NCBI GenBank assembly: GCA_048884785.1
Contig: JBHLQM010000073.1
Location: forward strand, 1-12,248
Length of the DNA stretch: 12,248 nt
Reading direction: 5' to 3'
From: Candidatus Thorarchaeota archaeon
GTDB taxonomy: Archaea > Asgardarchaeota > Thorarchaeia > Thorarchaeales > Thorarchaeaceae
The notes beneath the pieces were generated by a model that ran no database searches, was not told where the DNA came from, and saw only the letters and a list, made by a program, of their open reading frames with translations. The translations under genes were made by a program, and so were the position numbers. Position 1 is the stretch's first letter. Each line of letters begins with the position of its first letter. Positions 536 to 7,687 of this stretch are shown piece by piece.

Positions 536-754
536 CAGGACACACTGCACATCCGATGTATATTCCCAGTTCAGGTGTACACAATTTGAGTTGTGGCTCA
601 TCGAAATGAACAGACTATCATTTCTTCATCTGGCGTAATAATGGATAGCAGCTCTCTCAAATTCGCCAATTGGAACGAAATACGAGGCTTATTTGCCATT
701 GAATATTTTTATCAGCATTTACGCACAACATGATTTTCAGGCGATTGCCTTTAC

Positions 755-904
755 ATGAATGAACAACAGAGATGTTCTCGGACTGAATATGACAGCAAAT
801 TGTCATTTAGCGAAATCCGTCAGCCCACTTCTTTTCACCAAAGAGGTTCATTTCATGCAGTCAAATCTAGTTTCAGATTAGATGGCATAAAGGGAGGTGA
901 GTGA
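755..904 (+). CDS. Possible 49-aa leader ORF (uORF) coupled to the small ORF at 905
   Basis: ATG755 to TGA902-904 (MNEQQRCSRTEYDSKLSF...DGIKGGE*). The stop directly abuts GTG905. No obvious RBS, so it may be non-coding. Confidence 0.2.
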   Translation: MNEQQRCSRTEYDSKLSFSEIRQPTSFHQRGSFHAVKSSFRLDGIKGGE

Positions 905-914
905 GTGGGCAGAC
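819..914 (+). promoter_or_regulatory. Structured RNA leader sequestering the RBS and start codon of the 905 ORF
   Basis: Manual pairing gives about 35 bp in 96 nt: GTC-A-GCCCACTT (819-830) with GAGTGGGC-A-GAC (903-914), TTCACC (834-839) with GGTGAG (896-901), and an inner stem 847-895. An alternative hairpin 827-847 is mutually exclusive. Confidence 0.5.
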
Positions 915-1021
915 ATAACAACTCTAGTGGAAGAAAACGAAGGAATCATAACTCCAGAAGTTCTCGAAGAAGATTCCCATTGATAGAGGATAGATTGAAT
1001 CAAGGCTGGTCTGGAGTGTAG
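905..1021 (+). CDS. Small Arg-rich basic protein, 38 aa (MGRHNNSSGRKRRNHNSRSSRRRFPLIEDRLNQGWSGV)
   Basis: Perfect RBS GGAGGTGA at 893-900, 4 nt before GTG905; stop TAG at 1019-1021; followed by a hairpin and T-run. Not in the supplied ORF track. Confidence 0.5.
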   Translation: MGRHNNSSGRKRRNHNSRSSRRRFPLIEDRLNQGWSGV

Positions 1022-1048
1022 TCCTCGTTAGAATCACAACAAGCAATT

Positions 1049-1100
1049 GGCGTCTTGCTCTGGAACAGATTTTCTCTGGGATAGAGTCAGGCGCCTTTTT
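1049..1100 (+). terminator. Hairpin plus oligo-T, putative terminator of the small-ORF transcript
   Basis: GGCGTCT..CTCT-GGAA-CAGA-TTTTC-TCTG-GGAT-AGAG..AGGCGCC (1049-1095) followed by TTTTTCTTCT. Confidence 0.5.
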
Positions 1101-1177: not shown

Positions 1178-4100
1178 ATGCTCGATAAAGGAAAGACAGT
1201 GCTTCTTATAGTCCTACTAATTGCACCATTATTGATACTACCTAGCAGAGTTGGATTTGATTTTCTCAAATCTGGTGGTCAGTATGAAAACGATTCCAAA
1301 CCTGCTTCTCCATATCTAGACAGGGATGCAATTATGCACAACAATTCCGGAATTGCCCCCAATCAGTACAGCAATCAATACTTTGCCTCTGCCGAAACAA
1401 GCTCAGGTGTGCTTGATCCTATTACGGTTGAACAACGCGGATATTATTCCTCTGGAAATATCAGTGCGAGGACTGATACAGGTATCAACACTGGTACAAA
1501 TCTACTCTTGGATACTGCCCACAATTGGATTGCAGATGAAGCAGAGGCATATGTCTGGAATCTCCAGAAGTTATATGCCGCAAATGGAAGTTATGACGAA
1601 GGATTCCCGGGGATTAATGTATTTCCCGCAGGTTCAGTGGATTATCACCCGGTTGGGTGGGATGCAAATAGTACAGATACAACTACATATTCAGATGATG
1701 TACAACTGGCGGCTTATGATTCAAGCGGCCGAGAATTTGTGACAGTCGAAAGTCAGGGCGGAAAAGAGGGTCAAAACGCGTTTGGCCATGTAGCGGCCAC
1801 TAGAATAGTATGGATCCAAAATGTGACCAATGCTCCATATACAGAAGATTTCGTATTGAGTTTTGATTACTTCTATCTGAGAGGACCAATTGATGGCCCC
1901 ACAGGAGCAAATCCCCTAACAGGAAATTGCAGTATTGCCTTCTTCATTGATGGAATAAACATCTGGAATATGAGTTTGCTTCTTCTATCACAGAGAGGTG
2001 TCTGGTTTGAATCTGGAAACATCCCGATATCCATTATTGGCGCCCCAAGTAATTTCACATTGGAGATTGGATTAATAGTTGACGAAACATTGATTCTTGA
2101 CAAGCGATATGACTATGACGGTGACCCTGGCAATCTGCCAGATGGTCTAGCCAATTCAGCGTATATCACTGTCTACTTGGATGACATTTCCTTTATCAAG
2201 TCAACACCGCCCACTCCTCAAGAAGTCAAACTTGAATTCACCACTGGAGGAGAAAATTCCTCACTTGCTGGCTCTTCAGGTCTATACTACGCATTAATTG
2301 TAAACCAGTCATATTGGACTACGAGTCCTATCTCAGTCCATGTTGTGTCGAATACCACCGTTTCCTTTGAGTATGAATCTCGCCTGCTCTCTCATCGATT
2401 CGCAGACTCAAATTGGAGAACTGATATCTCAAGTTTTGGAATTTCATATGTAGTTGATATTGGTCAAAGCCCTGAACTCACTTTCTATTCATATGTTGGA
2501 TATCTTGGGGGATATGAAGATCCGGAGCTTATAATTAGATATCCAATAGATTGGGAGAATGTATCAGTTTCAGATCCATTCTTGGTAGATTTAACAGGCT
2601 CATGCTCAGTGAGTGATGGCAACCTTACGGTTCCAAGCTCAATTCTTGACCGATTAGGTTGGTGGCAATTTAAATTAGAATCACCAAACTATGGGAAAAC
2701 ATTGGAAATTCAGAAGTATGACTCTTCAACTGGTTGGCTAGTTGATAGCCAATTTCGAGTCGGCAATGAAACACGGCCAGCGATAGAAATCGGCACAATA
2801 ACAGAAACTCCGTCATCTCTCTCGAATGTCAATATCACCTGGACGCTGCCAAACGGCACTCAATGGTTTCAGGAGTCCATTTCTGGTGGAATTGATGGAA
2901 TTATCAATGGGACTTCGAGAGTAATTGACAACTCTCTTGCAGGTTATTGGCAGATTGAATTCATATGGTCAAACGGAACGGAGATTGCATTTCTCGATTC
3001 TATTTTTGAAGTATATCATTCAGCCAATTTGATTTCGCTTGATAGTATTATAGAAACTGAAGTAGGAAACATTGTAACAGGCAGGGTAGAATTTCGAGAT
3101 GCTGAAAATGACGATTACCTGATGGAAGACGCCCAAATCAAGGGAAACTGGTCTGCTGGTTCAGTCACATTTAGCTCAAATCCCACAAGAAAATGGTGGG
3201 AAGTTGATCTCGATACAAATCTAATAGGTGCGGGCTTATTTGTTGTAGAAGTAAATGCAACACTCCCATTTTTCGATATAGCAGTTTGTCAATTCTTTGT
3301 TCTGGCAACTAATGTCACACGATTGAGTTCGCCCAATGCGCCTTGGACTTCAACAGCATGGGAAAGTTCTGTGGTTTTGACATTTCATTACGAAACATTT
3401 GTTGCACTAGCGTCCTCTTGGGAACCGGTTTCCAATAGTAGCGGTAGCGTAGTAGCCACTGTTAACTGGACAATCGGAGCTTGGTCTGTACTGGAAACTG
3501 GTGTACCAGGCATATATGAAGTGACAATAGATACAGCAGTAAAGCCTGCAGATAGCTACCTACTCAATGTTTCTTTCTCAAAGCCGGCACATCAAGCCAG
3601 GCAAATGGTTTTAGAACTTGTGGTAACCCCGCAAGCAAGCAGTTTGACCATCTATAATGGATCTTCAATCCAGTCAGACATAGAGGACATTGTCGTTCTG
3701 AAATTCAGCTTTGTTGACTCAGATGGACATGAGACAGGTGATGCTCTGCTTACTGTAGATGCAGTTTCACCAAGTTCTGGTCTTGGTTTTTCAAGCTTTG
3801 AACCTGTGAGTGGAGAAACAGGGAACTACTCCGTATCAGTTACTGTAGGTGGGCTAGGGGTCTATACAATTCGATTTCTTGCCTCAAAGGCGGATTACCA
3901 ACCAGCAACAGCAGTGTTTGTACTAATAGTGAATGATCTGCCCACCAGCCTCTCTGTAACATCAGGTGAAACTGCAGAGATGGGGCTGACTGATACATTC
4001 ATTGCCACGTATCACTTTGAGATGTATAACGGCTCTCCAGTAGCAGGAGCACAGATTAATGTGCTCTACTCAGGTCCTGCTGGCGGTTTAGCGTGGTCTG

Positions 4101-7100
4101 CTCCAATAGATGAGGGATCCGGTGACTACTCGATTCAATTCTATTCAACCATTTCCGGAGCGTATTTGATTACTGTAGCTGCAGCAAGGCAGTATTATCA
4201 AAGTGATTCTGTTTCATTCTTCCTCTCTGTAGGGGAAATAGCAACTCGTTTGGACGTCCTCAATGGGACTGCCAAAACCATAGATTTTGGAACGCCCTAC
4301 AGATTGGTTCTTTCCTACTACAATACAACTCCGTACGGGCTGGCGGGTGCCGATATTGAAATTGTTTCAATGGATCCGAGCAGCGGACTTGATACTAGCA
4401 CTATCACGGACGAAGGTTCAGGAATCTATAGCCTGATTCTGGACCCCAAGATTGTTGGCATCTATACAATGGTATTTCGAGCCAATCTCACCAATCACCA
4501 GTCACAGTTTGCTTCATTTACACTCAATTTGAATGACATTATCACGGACCTTGCTATTACATCCGGAAATAGTGCAGAGATTGGACTTACTGATTCCTTT
4601 GAAGCGACAATCCATTATGAAGGGTATAATGGTACAGGAATTGAAGGTGCAAACGTGGATGTGGTGTATTCCGGACCCTCAGGGCTTTCTTGGTCAGTAC
4701 CTTCAGATGATGGCCAAGGCAACTACTCGCTTATCTTCGATGCTGTCACATCAGGTACATATCTCATTACAATCAGTGCTTCAAAGCAGTACTATCAAAC
4801 CTCATCGAGCTTCTTTTTCCTCCTTGTGGGCGATATTACAACTCATCTGAATGTTATGAATGGAACTTCCAAGACCATCAACTTTGGGCAGACCTACCGT
4901 TTGATGCTATACTACTACAACAACACACCATATGGATTGGAGGGAGCCAATGTGAGTCTTCTTTCAATCACACCGGATATCGGACTATCTGTTGGCTCCG
5001 TTGTAGAAGAGGGATTGGGCTTCTATAGCCTAGTACTGGACCCTCAGGTTGACGACACATTTACACTTCTGTTCGCTGCCAATTTGACAAATCATCAGAC
5101 TCAGTTTGCCACTTTTACGCTTGTTTCAAATCCGGTTCCTACTGAGCTGAAAGCTCTCAATTCGACAACATCACTACAAGTAATCACCAACTTCACTCTC
5201 TTCCTGCGATATGAAACCCAAGGAGCGATTGGCATTTCAGGCGCAAACCTAGTTGTCTTGAATCCTCCAACGGGATTAACACTCTCCAATTTCGAGGATA
5301 TTGGGAACGGCTACTATAAGTTGTATATATTCCCGATACAAACTGGAAGCTTCCAGCTCTCAATAACCTCGTCCAAGCAGTTCTATCAGACCGAGAGTAC
5401 ATCTGTGTTTCTTGTAATTGGCGAGATAAACACACAATTCGTCATCCTAAACGGAACTGCGGGAAACATTGTTTTTGGCAGCACATACGATCTTTGGTTC
5501 TCATTCAAGAATGAATCAAGTGTTGGTCTTGAAGGCGCGATCCTCACAACAGTCAGCATAACACCATCTGGCCTATCAACTGGTCCGTTTATTGACAGGG
5601 GTGAGGGGCTGTATTCCGTCTTGTTGAATCCAAGCATGAGCAAGACCTTCTCCATATTGATCAAAGCCAATCTCTCGAATCATGAGGTGCAATTTGCAGT
5701 TTTTACAATAGTTGTTGAGCCTGTTGCAACTGTATTCAGAGCCATGAATGCAACGGCATCAATCTCAGTGGATAACGACTACAGACTAGTGCTACTCTTT
5801 GAGGATGACAACAATAATGGGATTGAAGGTGCTCTTATTGAGCTCCTCACGACCCCTGAGGGTATTGCTATTTCTGAGATTGCAGAGCTTGGAGTGGGAT
5901 ACTACAGCGTTCTGCTGAACCCCTCTGCCATTAACATGTACAATTTGCTATTTAGAGCAAGTCTAGAAAATCATCAGAACGGATCAACATCCTACATACT
6001 TGAAACCACACTAGTGCCAACGTCACTGAGGTTTCTAGACGATATCAGTTCTGGGATAACATATTATGGTGAAGAATTCTTTATTTCTGTATTCTATAAC
6101 CGGACTGACTCCCACCAGATTATTGAGTCTGCAACTGTGAATGCTAGTACTCAAAAAACTGGGATTTCATTTATTGTTGAAGACACTGGAACTTTGTACA
6201 CAATACGAGTTAATCCATTAAGATTGGGAACTCATGCGATTACGATAACAATCACAAAGGATGACTACAAGAGTCAATTCGTTACCTTTACTCTCACTGT
6301 TTTAGAAATCCCAACTTCTCTGTCGTGGGAGAATCAACCTGAGGAGATACTCTTCAGTCATACTCATACAATGATGTTCTCCTACGTGAACAGTGTTGTG
6401 CTGAATAGCACTGTAGTCTTAGATGGGACCTATCAAATCATAGGTTCGAAAATAAACTGGGTTGAAACTGAGAGAATTGGCATTAGACAGTTTAATTTCT
6501 CGATAACACCCAATGAGCTTGGAACATACACATTGGTATTCCAGTTCTCCGCCGAAGGTTTCGAAGGTCAGTCCCTTTCCATCACTTTCACAGTTATCGA
6601 AGTGAGCGTTGATGTCAATTTCATTTCTGCTACTATGACCACTGAAGGACTCCCCTTGACAGTGGTTGTTGAGCTTTTTGAAAGTGGAACAAATATCCCA
6701 GTAAAGGGTGCAGATTTAAGATGCAGATTGGATGTACCAGATAGTCTATGGGCGACACTATCAGAGATTGCACCAGGGAGGTATAGAGGGCAGCTACTAA
6801 TTCCAATAGTAGAAACAGAATCCAGCATTGATGTTCTATTCTTCTTCAGCAAAGAGAACTATCAGATTTCTTTAGCTACACAAATATCAATTCTGGTTCG
6901 AACTGACCCCTTCGTCAAGCTGTTCCCAGCCATATCGATTGGTGGCAGCTCTATCGCAATGCTGACCGTTGCTTTTGTAGGATATCGTGTTTCTAGAACT
7001 AGAAAGAGGAAGAGAAATCTCAGGGCTATCGCAATCAAACAGCGATTTGATGATGTAAAGAATATGATTGGAATAATCGTTCTCCACAAGTCAAGTGGAC

Positions 7101-7687
7101 TACCAATATATTCAAGAACGCTAAAGGGTGGATTTGATGAATCCATGGTTTCTGCCTTTATCACTGCTGTTTCTCATTTCAGATCAGAATTTGGCATGGA
7201 TGAGAAACACTGGGACTTCCAAGTCATCCCAATTTCGGATATCGTCAGTGCCGTTCCAACAAGAAATCTGATTTGCGCATTCATATCTGCTTCAGCTCCC
7301 TCAAAAGAACAGCTTGTCAAGATGGAAGCTTTTGGACGAGCAGTTGGGGCTATGTTTGATGAATCCTCTGCAATAGCACCCACAGAGCTTCAAGATCAAA
7401 GAGCAGAGGAACTATTCACATCACTCTTTATGGATCTAATGGATGGCGAATTCCTTACCGCCTACAGAAAACGAGAGTCTGCAGATATTCCGAAGAGCAT
7501 GAAGTGTCTATCATATGTTGTTAGAAACATGGATCATCCTGAATTCTCACTGGATGAACTGGCGCGGGGCATGGCAATGTGCGGAATCGAGGAAGGAGAG
7601 GCTTACTTGCAAGTGATGGATGCAATAGAAAATGGAATCCTCGAACCTGCAAATGGAAGTTTGCCTCTTGAACTTGAACCAAAGTAG
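1178..7687 (+). CDS. Giant single-pass surface glycoprotein: signal peptide, ~13 Ig-like beta-sandwich repeats, TM helix, cytoplasmic longin-like and winged-helix-like domains
   Basis: RBS GGAGG 4 nt before ATG. N-terminal KGK plus hydrophobic signal. Many N-x-S/T sequons. ~100-aa repeats at aa ~614-1909. TM at aa ~1915-1936 followed by RVSRTRKRKR (positive-inside). Tail MIGIIVLHKSSGLPIYSR...DESMVSAFITAVSHFRSE has a longin-type beta-beta-alpha pattern. Domain calls are by eye. Confidence 0.92.
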   Translation: MLDKGKTVLLIVLLIAPLLILPSRVGFDFLKSGGQYENDSKPASPYLDRDAIMHNNSGIAPNQYSNQYFASAETSSGVLDPITVEQRGYYSSGNISARTDTGINTGTNLLLDTAHNWIADEAEAYVWNLQKLYAANGSYDEGFPGINVFPAGSVDYHPVGWDANSTDTTTYSDDVQLAAYDSSGREFVTVESQGGKEGQNAFGHVAATRIVWIQNVTNAPYTEDFVLSFDYFYLRGPIDGPTGANPLTGNCSIAFFIDGINIWNMSLLLLSQRGVWFESGNIPISIIGAPSNFTLEIGLIVDETLILDKRYDYDGDPGNLPDGLANSAYITVYLDDISFIKSTPPTPQEVKLEFTTGGENSSLAGSSGLYYALIVNQSYWTTSPISVHVVSNTTVSFEYESRLLSHRFADSNWRTDISSFGISYVVDIGQSPELTFYSYVGYLGGYEDPELIIRYPIDWENVSVSDPFLVDLTGSCSVSDGNLTVPSSILDRLGWWQFKLESPNYGKTLEIQKYDSSTGWLVDSQFRVGNETRPAIEIGTITETPSSLSNVNITWTLPNGTQWFQESISGGIDGIINGTSRVIDNSLAGYWQIEFIWSNGTEIAFLDSIFEVYHSANLISLDSIIETEVGNIVTGRVEFRDAENDDYLMEDAQIKGNWSAGSVTFSSNPTRKWWEVDLDTNLIGAGLFVVEVNATLPFFDIAVCQFFVLATNVTRLSSPNAPWTSTAWESSVVLTFHYETFVALASSWEPVSNSSGSVVATVNWTIGAWSVLETGVPGIYEVTIDTAVKPADSYLLNVSFSKPAHQARQMVLELVVTPQASSLTIYNGSSIQSDIEDIVVLKFSFVDSDGHETGDALLTVDAVSPSSGLGFSSFEPVSGETGNYSVSVTVGGLGVYTIRFLASKADYQPATAVFVLIVNDLPTSLSVTSGETAEMGLTDTFIATYHFEMYNGSPVAGAQINVLYSGPAGGLAWSAPIDEGSGDYSIQFYSTISGAYLITVAAARQYYQSDSVSFFLSVGEIATRLDVLNGTAKTIDFGTPYRLVLSYYNTTPYGLAGADIEIVSMDPSSGLDTSTITDEGSGIYSLILDPKIVGIYTMVFRANLTNHQSQFASFTLNLNDIITDLAITSGNSAEIGLTDSFEATIHYEGYNGTGIEGANVDVVYSGPSGLSWSVPSDDGQGNYSLIFDAVTSGTYLITISASKQYYQTSSSFFFLLVGDITTHLNVMNGTSKTINFGQTYRLMLYYYNNTPYGLEGANVSLLSITPDIGLSVGSVVEEGLGFYSLVLDPQVDDTFTLLFAANLTNHQTQFATFTLVSNPVPTELKALNSTTSLQVITNFTLFLRYETQGAIGISGANLVVLNPPTGLTLSNFEDIGNGYYKLYIFPIQTGSFQLSITSSKQFYQTESTSVFLVIGEINTQFVILNGTAGNIVFGSTYDLWFSFKNESSVGLEGAILTTVSITPSGLSTGPFIDRGEGLYSVLLNPSMSKTFSILIKANLSNHEVQFAVFTIVVEPVATVFRAMNATASISVDNDYRLVLLFEDDNNNGIEGALIELLTTPEGIAISEIAELGVGYYSVLLNPSAINMYNLLFRASLENHQNGSTSYILETTLVPTSLRFLDDISSGITYYGEEFFISVFYNRTDSHQIIESATVNASTQKTGISFIVEDTGTLYTIRVNPLRLGTHAITITITKDDYKSQFVTFTLTVLEIPTSLSWENQPEEILFSHTHTMMFSYVNSVVLNSTVVLDGTYQIIGSKINWVETERIGIRQFNFSITPNELGTYTLVFQFSAEGFEGQSLSITFTVIEVSVDVNFISATMTTEGLPLTVVVELFESGTNIPVKGADLRCRLDVPDSLWATLSEIAPGRYRGQLLIPIVETESSIDVLFFFSKENYQISLATQISILVRTDPFVKLFPAISIGGSSIAMLTVAFVGYRVSRTRKRKRNLRAIAIKQRFDDVKNMIGIIVLHKSSGLPIYSRTLKGGFDESMVSAFITAVSHFRSEFGMDEKHWDFQVIPISDIVSAVPTRNLICAFISASAPSKEQLVKMEAFGRAVGAMFDESSAIAPTELQDQRAEELFTSLFMDLMDGEFLTAYRKRESADIPKSMKCLSYVVRNMDHPEFSLDELARGMAMCGIEEGEAYLQVMDAIENGILEPANGSLPLELEPK
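3017..6904 (+). repeat. Array of ~13 Ig-like protein repeats (~290-320 nt each) inside the giant CDS
   Basis: Repeat starts include 3938, 4238, 4538, 4835, 5135, 5426, 5723, 6014, 6308 and 6602. Shared motifs: (I/V)xTxL...G(I/L)xGA...GxGxYS...Y/HQ. Units 3938-4537 and 4538-5134 are clear duplicates at protein level. Confidence 0.85.

Follow-up and report, generated by a model that had tools for sequence, protein, structure and literature searches.

The window, the whole 12,248-nt stretch of DNA analysed, derives from a Candidatus Thorarchaeota archaeon, a member of the Asgard archaea, and the region of interest represents one locus in a 3.6-Mb metagenome-assembled genome (MAG). It comprises the intergenic region (536-1177) between a 131-codon open reading frame (ORF) and a 2169-codon ORF with Ig repeats. 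The 638-nt intergenic region is present as a single copy in its own MAG, shows no relevant repeats and has no match in viral contigs, and a repeat or mobile-element origin was rejected on these grounds. No tRNA or tmRNA was found in the window with ARAGORN, while a scan of the window for bacterial-type promoters and terminators was uninformative, as the host is an archaeon. The following features can be distinguished in the intergenic region:

704-712, forward strand: TATA-like box TATTTTTAT, predicted promoter of the unit
739-758, forward strand: invariant 5′-terminal motif AGGCGA-N10-CATGA, including the leader-ORF ATG (755-757)
755-904, forward strand: leader ORF (uORF) of 49 codons, the TGA stop of which (902-904) abuts GTG905
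779-819 (core 783-810), forward strand: predicted hairpin P1, within the leader ORF
819-914, forward strand: rod hairpin P2, with the 5′ arm (819-839) paired to the 3′ arm (893-914)
893-900, forward strand: Shine-Dalgarno (SD) sequence GGAGGTGA of the small ORF, an 8-nt perfect 16S complement
905-1021, forward strand: small ORF of 38 codons with a GTG start and TAG stop, with 18 distinct homologues
1049-1100, forward strand: 3′ hairpin (1049-1095) followed by T5 (1096-1100), the likely transcript end

No Pfam match was obtained for the translated product of the upstream flanking gene (140-535), which is one of a multi-copy family in the genus, with five matches in the window's own genome. Of these, a partial copy at the edge of contig C17 shares 94% identity, and strain heterogeneity within the MAG may account for it. 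As the orthologs of this flanking gene within the same genus share only 27-42% identity, no empty site could be recognized there. The downstream gene (1178-7687) codes for a 2169-amino acid protein with sub-threshold matches to Ig-like, Big_1, invasin-D3, filamin and CarboxypepD_reg repeats and contains internal DNA repeats, ~597 nt in length, at 4264-5707. Ahead of the start of this gene come GGGAGG and, 18 nt upstream, a T8 run.

Comparison at the DNA level with related genomes matched only the stretch 891-1029, in two genomes, where the aligned stretches encode the same peptide of 38-52 residues. Profile searches against six-frame translations identified homologues in 16 of the 86 genomes of the window's own family, distributed patchily over 6-7 of its 16 genera, and in none of the 314 genomes of 32 other families of the phylum. 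Peptide patterns based on an ATG start matched ATG-start members only, and as such a degenerate DNA pattern was used, which added metagenomic and GenBank loci, all from Candidatus Thorarchaeota/Promethearchaeota MAGs. After removal of duplicates, 18 distinct loci, all from one Thorarchaeota family, were retained, in addition to two divergent loci and one fused form. Among five gap-free loci of one genus, the variable sites of the small ORF fall 15/5/24 over the three codon positions, a coding signature, while ATG replaces the GTG of the other loci in three cases, fixing position 905 as the start. On these comparative grounds, the small ORF (905-1021) is a real, conserved and unannotated gene, in keeping with the original prediction, made from the sequence of the window, of a hidden small gene at this position. 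A second, overlapping frame of 28 codons beginning at GTG897 (897-983) is also open in relatives, with the same end. It was rejected as a gene, given that its second codon positions would vary most and that the conserved C-terminal motif lies past its stop, and is probably a by-product of the codon usage of the small ORF.

The peptide family shares an N-terminus of the form (M)G/S/A-R-H-N-N/H-S (MGRHNNS in the window), an Arg-, Asn-, Ser- and His-rich linker that varies in length, and, at the C-terminus, (I/V)x(D/E)DxLxxGW(S/A/T)G with a single further residue before the stop, a motif that can also be summarised as IEDxLxxGWSG(V/A/C/I). The window peptide has a pI of 12, a GRAVY value of -1.76 and a longest hydrophobic run of two residues, and throughout the family the pI (10.5-12) and GRAVY (-0.8 to -1.8) values are similar, without any transmembrane stretch. 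Searches against Pfam returned nothing meaningful for any of the 18 members, even at E <= 10, a profile search of the PDB with the peptide gave a best E-value of 2.5, and the ESM Atlas held no usable match for it. The AlphaFold2 model (pLDDT 62) contains no predicted secondary structure, and the 38-residue product is accordingly modelled as a very basic, disordered peptide. Only three matches were found among 1.84 billion protein representatives, being either family members or chance; two are family members, one of which carries a wrong N-terminal extension. The microprotein family is thus almost wholly missed by automated gene calling.

Residue 2 of the peptide is always Gly, Ser or Ala. Without the initiator Met, the N-terminus would read X-Arg-His, which we take to be a match to H2N-X-X-His, the ATCUN motif for Cu(II)/Ni(II) binding. 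The peptides of one subfamily are moreover rich in His (RHEHERKRGRH-like), and in variants from genus g10 a Gln replaces the His of X-Arg-His.

The 96-nt segment 819-914 folds into a rod of 35 base pairs with a minimum free energy of -33.5 kcal/mol, as compared to -20.1 +/- 3.0 kcal/mol for dinucleotide-shuffled sequences (z = -4.47), none of 200 of which folds as well. The 5′ arm consists of GCCCAC and a pyrimidine-rich anti-SD, and the 3′ arm of the SD, a spacer and GTG GGC AGAC, so that GGAGGTGA (893-900) and GTG 905-907 pair with 834-849 and 823-830. In the predicted full transcript of the window, the SD is paired with a probability of 0.85 and the start codon with one of 1.00, values matched by 0.5% of 200 control genes from the same genome which likewise carry a strong SD. 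Among 17 of the loci, 13 combine an SD pairing probability of at least 0.7 with a start codon pairing probability of at least 0.8, versus 9% of the same control genes. The burial of the ribosome-binding site and GTG905 by an anti-SD, in a rod of the predicted length and about the predicted number of pairs, was therefore borne out. The SD is an 8-nt perfect complement to the 3′ end of the 16S rRNA of its own genome (...GGAUCACCUCCU), extended to 10 nt in one subfamily, and every locus carries GGAGGTGA or a one-base variant of it 4 nt ahead of the start codon. Once freed from sequestration, it would promote initiation very strongly.

In a MAFFT alignment of ten loci from six genera, RNAalifold recovered the outer helix of the rod, with the consensus GCCCAC and a pyrimidine run paired with GGGAGGUGA-N4-GUGGGC. 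Across this helix 88.7% of cells are paired, versus 44-59% when the partner strand is slid by one to three columns. Changes on both sides affect six of its 15 pairs, and one of 500 shuffles attains this number, although such shuffle statistics overstate the significance, the relatives being few and akin. The clearest covariation concerns the start codon itself, where CAC:GUG is replaced by CAU:AUG. Within one genus, almost all sites in the apical half of P2 vary, and several relatives have weak z-scores for the segment -95..+12 (L016 and L020, -0.25 to -0.6). Hairpin P1, which had also been proposed from the sequence, is predicted in the window (779-819); hairpins at the same place with unrelated stem sequences are predicted in other genera, and within genus g6 one pair changes from UA to CG. 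The 3′ hairpin (1049-1095; -25.1 kcal/mol) and the T5 run behind it agree with the proposed closure of the unit; strong 3′ hairpins are predicted in most loci, and a run of at least five T occurs no more than 130 nt past the stop in 11/18.

The most conserved non-coding block of the family, AGGCGA-N10-13-(C)ATGA, is found in 17 of the 18 loci, 150-220 nt upstream of the small ORF. In these 17 loci an A/T-rich box of the TTTAWWWW type is located 24-27 nt upstream of the invariant GGCGA. In archaeal promoters the spacing from the TATA box sets the transcript start, and from this spacing only we infer a start 2-4 nt before GGCGA, which would place the leader ATG ~17 nt from the 5′ end. The GGCGAU near the leader AUG is similar to the SD core GGUGAU and has a single mismatch to the 3′ end of the 16S rRNA. 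AUG755 is predicted to be accessible in the window (probability of being paired 0.09), and in some relatives the leader AUG lies in a small hairpin.

In genus g6 (L019-L024) the 5′ motif is GGCGAAUGUAG in four of five species, GGCGAAAGUAG being present in L019 and GGCGAAUGCAG in L023. This motif, the first 12 nt of the predicted transcript, includes a mini-ORF, AUG UAG, 10 nt before the leader AUG, and other lineages have mini-ORFs of 5 to 12 codons or UUG there.

The invariant AUG opens a frame of 48-72 codons in 17/17 loci. No stop occurs in this frame, versus 0-10 (mean ~3.5) in each other frame. Shuffled leader frames remain open in 1-14% of trials per locus; the combined chance over 11 lineage representatives is ~1e-15, a figure that is overstated as the lineages are akin. 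The leader stop is placed between -7 and +11 of the small-ORF start, likewise in 17/17 loci, where it takes the form of a TGA inside GGTGA (nine loci), a TGA directly before the start (the window), UAGUG/UAAUG/UGAUG overlaps (six loci), GUGA (one locus) or a stop 11 nt inside the small ORF (one locus). The relative frame of the two ORFs is 0, 1 or 2 depending on the lineage, with all three occurring. In the window the SD (893-900) forms part of the last uORF codons and the 5′ arm of P2 corresponds to uORF codons 22-29, while the 755-904 frame ends with TGA 902-904 right before GTG905, as had been noted for a coupled 49-codon uORF. The leader carries no coding signature, with variable sites distributed 27/29/25 over the codon positions, and leader peptides are unalignable between genera and range in pI from 4.5 to 11.5.

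In the divergent loci L034 and L036 of genus g10, the leader exceeds that of their genus relative G047 by ~65 nt and the long uORF stops 52 nt early (-52). A second uORF of 12 codons, which is begun by a duplicated ATGAATTGGCGAAT segment, ends there in the TGA of the SD. Together with the open frames of the other loci, this suggests that the arrival of ribosomes at the SD and start codon by way of the rod is conserved.

These in silico features, namely the structure and its covariation, the open leader frame with its stop position and the coding signature of the small ORF, lead us to infer that the leader is translated and that its translation is coupled to that of the small ORF. We consider it likely that the locus is a self-contained micro-operon of ~360 nt with two ORFs, extending from the promoter at ~704-712 and the predicted start at ~736-739 to an end at 1049-1100, in which the 38-residue peptide is the sole conserved product and ribosomes from the leader ORF melt the rod and reinitiate at the SD and GTG905, resulting in obligatory translational coupling. 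Ribosomes would enter at the 5′-proximal AUG, which is predicted to be accessible, unwind P1 and P2 in the course of translating the leader, and terminate on or beside the SD and start codon, in the window at the TGA directly before GTG. At this point the 3′ arm, with the SD and GTG, would be located inside or just behind the mRNA channel of the ribosome, and the 5′ arm, ~22 codons into the leader ORF, far behind it. With the arms in these positions, the terminated ribosome would be situated beside an exposed, strong SD, with a start codon 0-11 nt away. Either the terminating ribosome would reinitiate or a new subunit initiate on the briefly exposed SD/GTG, and the rod would then re-form. Because the SD and GTG are held in a rod that leader ribosomes would cross, expression of the peptide would be strictly slaved to leader translation, and the peptide is probably made only by ribosomes that have read the leader first. 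It would be the act of translating the leader that matters, not the leader peptide. The coupled uORF, earlier a side remark, is as such the core of the proposed mechanism.

Translational coupling of this kind is known from phage f1 genes VII/IX, the MS2 coat and lysis genes, E. coli rpmI-rplT and gene pairs of Haloferax volcanii. RNA unfolding and termination-reinitiation as routes of coupling are established elsewhere (PMC12548453), and overlapping Haloferax gene pairs show strict coupling with a variable, often helpful, contribution of the intragenic SD (PMC6728339). The two ORFs in the Thorarchaeota loci resemble such pairs in being co-directional, in that the stop of the upstream ORF overlaps, abuts or lies within a few nt of the downstream start, in having the downstream SD inside the upstream ORF, and in that the downstream start is silenced by a structure which includes upstream coding sequence (PMC12548453, PMC6728339, PMC10666635). 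They differ in that the upstream ORF lacks a coding signature and seemingly only gates the microprotein, in that the unit stands alone in Asgard archaea with its own predicted promoter and terminator, and in that the relative frame and stop position drift among relatives while the principle is kept. The mechanism belongs to a class that is already known; the novelty lies in an undescribed family of microprotein and leader, in its presence in Asgard archaea and in a leader ORF that seems to be conserved solely for its translation.

In the relatives, the invariant 5′ end, CGAAUG with a variable base, is complementary to a (R)CAUUCG box, which belongs to the 3′ strand of the rod and precedes the SD by ~25-35 nt. 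Across this helix 87% of cells are paired, versus 18-43% when the strands are slid, and one pair is split between four C-G and four U-A. The mean duplex z-score is -1.7, seven loci have p <= 0.013, and other subfamilies have different but again complementary 5′-end and box sequences. The helix is not kept in the window, where the sequence of the box is AUUAGA and the duplex scores z = 0.06. As it crosses P2, it would represent either a pseudoknot or an alternative fold. Such pairing would close the 5′ entry site and may provide a point of regulation in relatives; together with the invariant 5′ motif, it is a candidate modulator of leader initiation. A bolder interpretation, which we consider unlikely, is that of a self-locking 'one-shot' mRNA, in which the 5′ end of most relatives (CGAAUG...) docks in the rod as a pseudoknot that closes the leader entry site on the completed transcript, such that synthesis of the peptide would be limited to nascent transcripts or require an activating event. 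The product would then be a metal- or nucleic acid-binding microprotein, stress-induced and possibly toxic, with an ATCUN-type N-terminus and a protamine-like tail rich in Arg and His. If true, a hok-like logic would have arisen independently in Asgard archaea.

A related explanation is that the locus is itself a type I toxin system like hok/mok/sok of plasmid R1, in which the basic peptide would be toxic, the leader would take the role of mok and a folded, inert mRNA would be controlled by an antisense RNA or processing not seen in the sequence. The shared architecture speaks for this, as a tiny ORF is preceded and overlapped by a leader ORF, its SD is held in a rod, mRNA folding blocks ribosome entry and a long-range helix with the 5′ end is present in relatives; so do the patchy distribution described above, the second match in two genomes (one a full second cassette, the other a fused form) and a gene neighbourhood that is not conserved. 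However, hok-type products are small hydrophobic membrane toxins, whereas the peptide is hydrophilic, basic and disordered in the window and similar in all relatives. Neither a 3′-end fold-back nor sequence or Rfam similarity to hok is observed, and the 5′-end helix is not kept in the window. An unsystematic look revealed no antisense gene and, in the variable 3′ flanks, no conserved antisense promoter, and the cassette was not found in viral contigs. We regard this explanation as improbable, and membership of type I toxin-antitoxin systems is not claimed.

The leader might alternatively encode a functional small protein of its own in an ordinary two-gene operon, with the hairpin being incidental. 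Its frame is open and its length roughly kept, and certain residues recur, PTS ~23 codons into the frame and F-D/E ~10 codons before its end, the conservation of which could stem from a constraint on the peptide rather than on the RNA. These residues nevertheless fall on the RNA arms, namely GCCCAC(U) and the CAUUCGA box, and the absence of a third-position excess (27/29/25) and the unalignable leader peptides with their wide range of pI also make a conserved leader protein quite improbable. The same peptides separate the obligatory coupling preferred here from leader-peptide attenuation as in ermC, cat and cmlA, in which a short ORF near the 5′ end likewise controls access to a hairpin-held SD. 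Leaderless polycysteine uORF attenuators of mycobacteria similarly combine a 5′-near ORF with an SD hairpin (bioRxiv 10.1101/834739). The leaders of these systems are short, rely on conserved stalling codons or peptides and end before the hairpin, in contrast to the Thorarchaeota leader, which runs through the whole hairpin to the SD without a conserved stalling motif.

As a ligand- or temperature-sensing switch, the leader would toggle between the SD-sequestering rod and the exclusive fold of the original prediction, in which a hairpin of 827-834 with 840-847 largely frees the ribosome-binding site. The sequestering structure is stable and conserved, the competing hairpin can be drawn and can form (-5.1 kcal/mol), and the 5′-end/box helix of the relatives could be part of a conformational choice. 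The ensemble probability of the hairpin is nevertheless 0.0015, and when it is forced the SD re-pairs elsewhere (-29.1 kcal/mol). At the equivalent position in ten other loci the energies are 0 to -3.4 kcal/mol with one exception, the hairpin being absent in 9/10. This anti-anti-SD hairpin was consequently rejected, and with it the freeing of the SD and the two exclusive conformations. The hypervariability of the apical half of P2 within one genus speaks against a conserved ligand pocket, and as such neither the conserved ligand core nor the pair of conserved exclusive folds typical of riboswitches was found. RNA thermometers of the ROSE and fourU types rely on a short, imperfect SD hairpin that melts at physiological temperatures, whereas P2 is a 35-bp rod (-33.5 kcal/mol at 37 °C) which would be far too stable to act in the thermometer range. 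A cmscan of the whole window against Rfam, on both strands, gave no match at E <= 1, consistent with the RNA being undescribed, as had been supposed, and with no known switch family. While translational riboswitches and thermometers also sequester the SD and start in a 5′ structure, the region which would correspond to an aptamer is here an open frame, conserved in 17/17 loci. A ligand- or temperature-sensing switch is thus very improbable, and what stands of the original prediction is the hidden gene, its buried ribosome-binding site and the coupled uORF. That the unit is a structured non-coding RNA with both ORFs accidental is hardly credible, since, although both strands fold better than shuffles and gene callers almost never call the ORF (three matches among the 1.84 billion representatives), the small ORF shows substitutions of the coding type, its stop is conserved, GTG and ATG starts interchange, and the termini of its product are conserved despite a linker of variable length.

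Asgard archaea are the closest prokaryotic relatives of eukaryotes. To our knowledge, translation control in this group has hardly been explored, and documentation of conserved regulatory uORFs is poor for archaea as a whole. With obligatory coupling as the likely mechanism, the locus would offer, in ~360 nt, a compact comparative model for archaeal reinitiation and ribosome-driven RNA unfolding, combining a product-independent leader, a covarying rod around the SD and start codon, and junctions that drift from -7 to +11 while the coupling is apparently kept. It furthermore adds an unannotated microprotein family.

No gene neighbourhood is conserved across the family; one subfamily adjoins DUF22 and DsrE/DsrH-like genes, while another adjoins a gene encoding an M24 peptidase. 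In the former, the His-rich subfamily (L040, L044, L052 and L053), the cassette is divergent from a conserved gene coding for a 135-amino acid DUF22 protein, which is followed by the DsrE- and DsrH-like genes. The fused form is represented by L038 (G061:C78:188343-188411) and by L055, around 4109-4414. In the fused copy only the C-terminal motif (..RLTVIQNQQELGWSGI, then the stop) is retained, joined to the end of a ~100-amino acid protein that begins with a signal-peptide-like hydrophobic segment, and this form of the cassette may have been recombined or domesticated.
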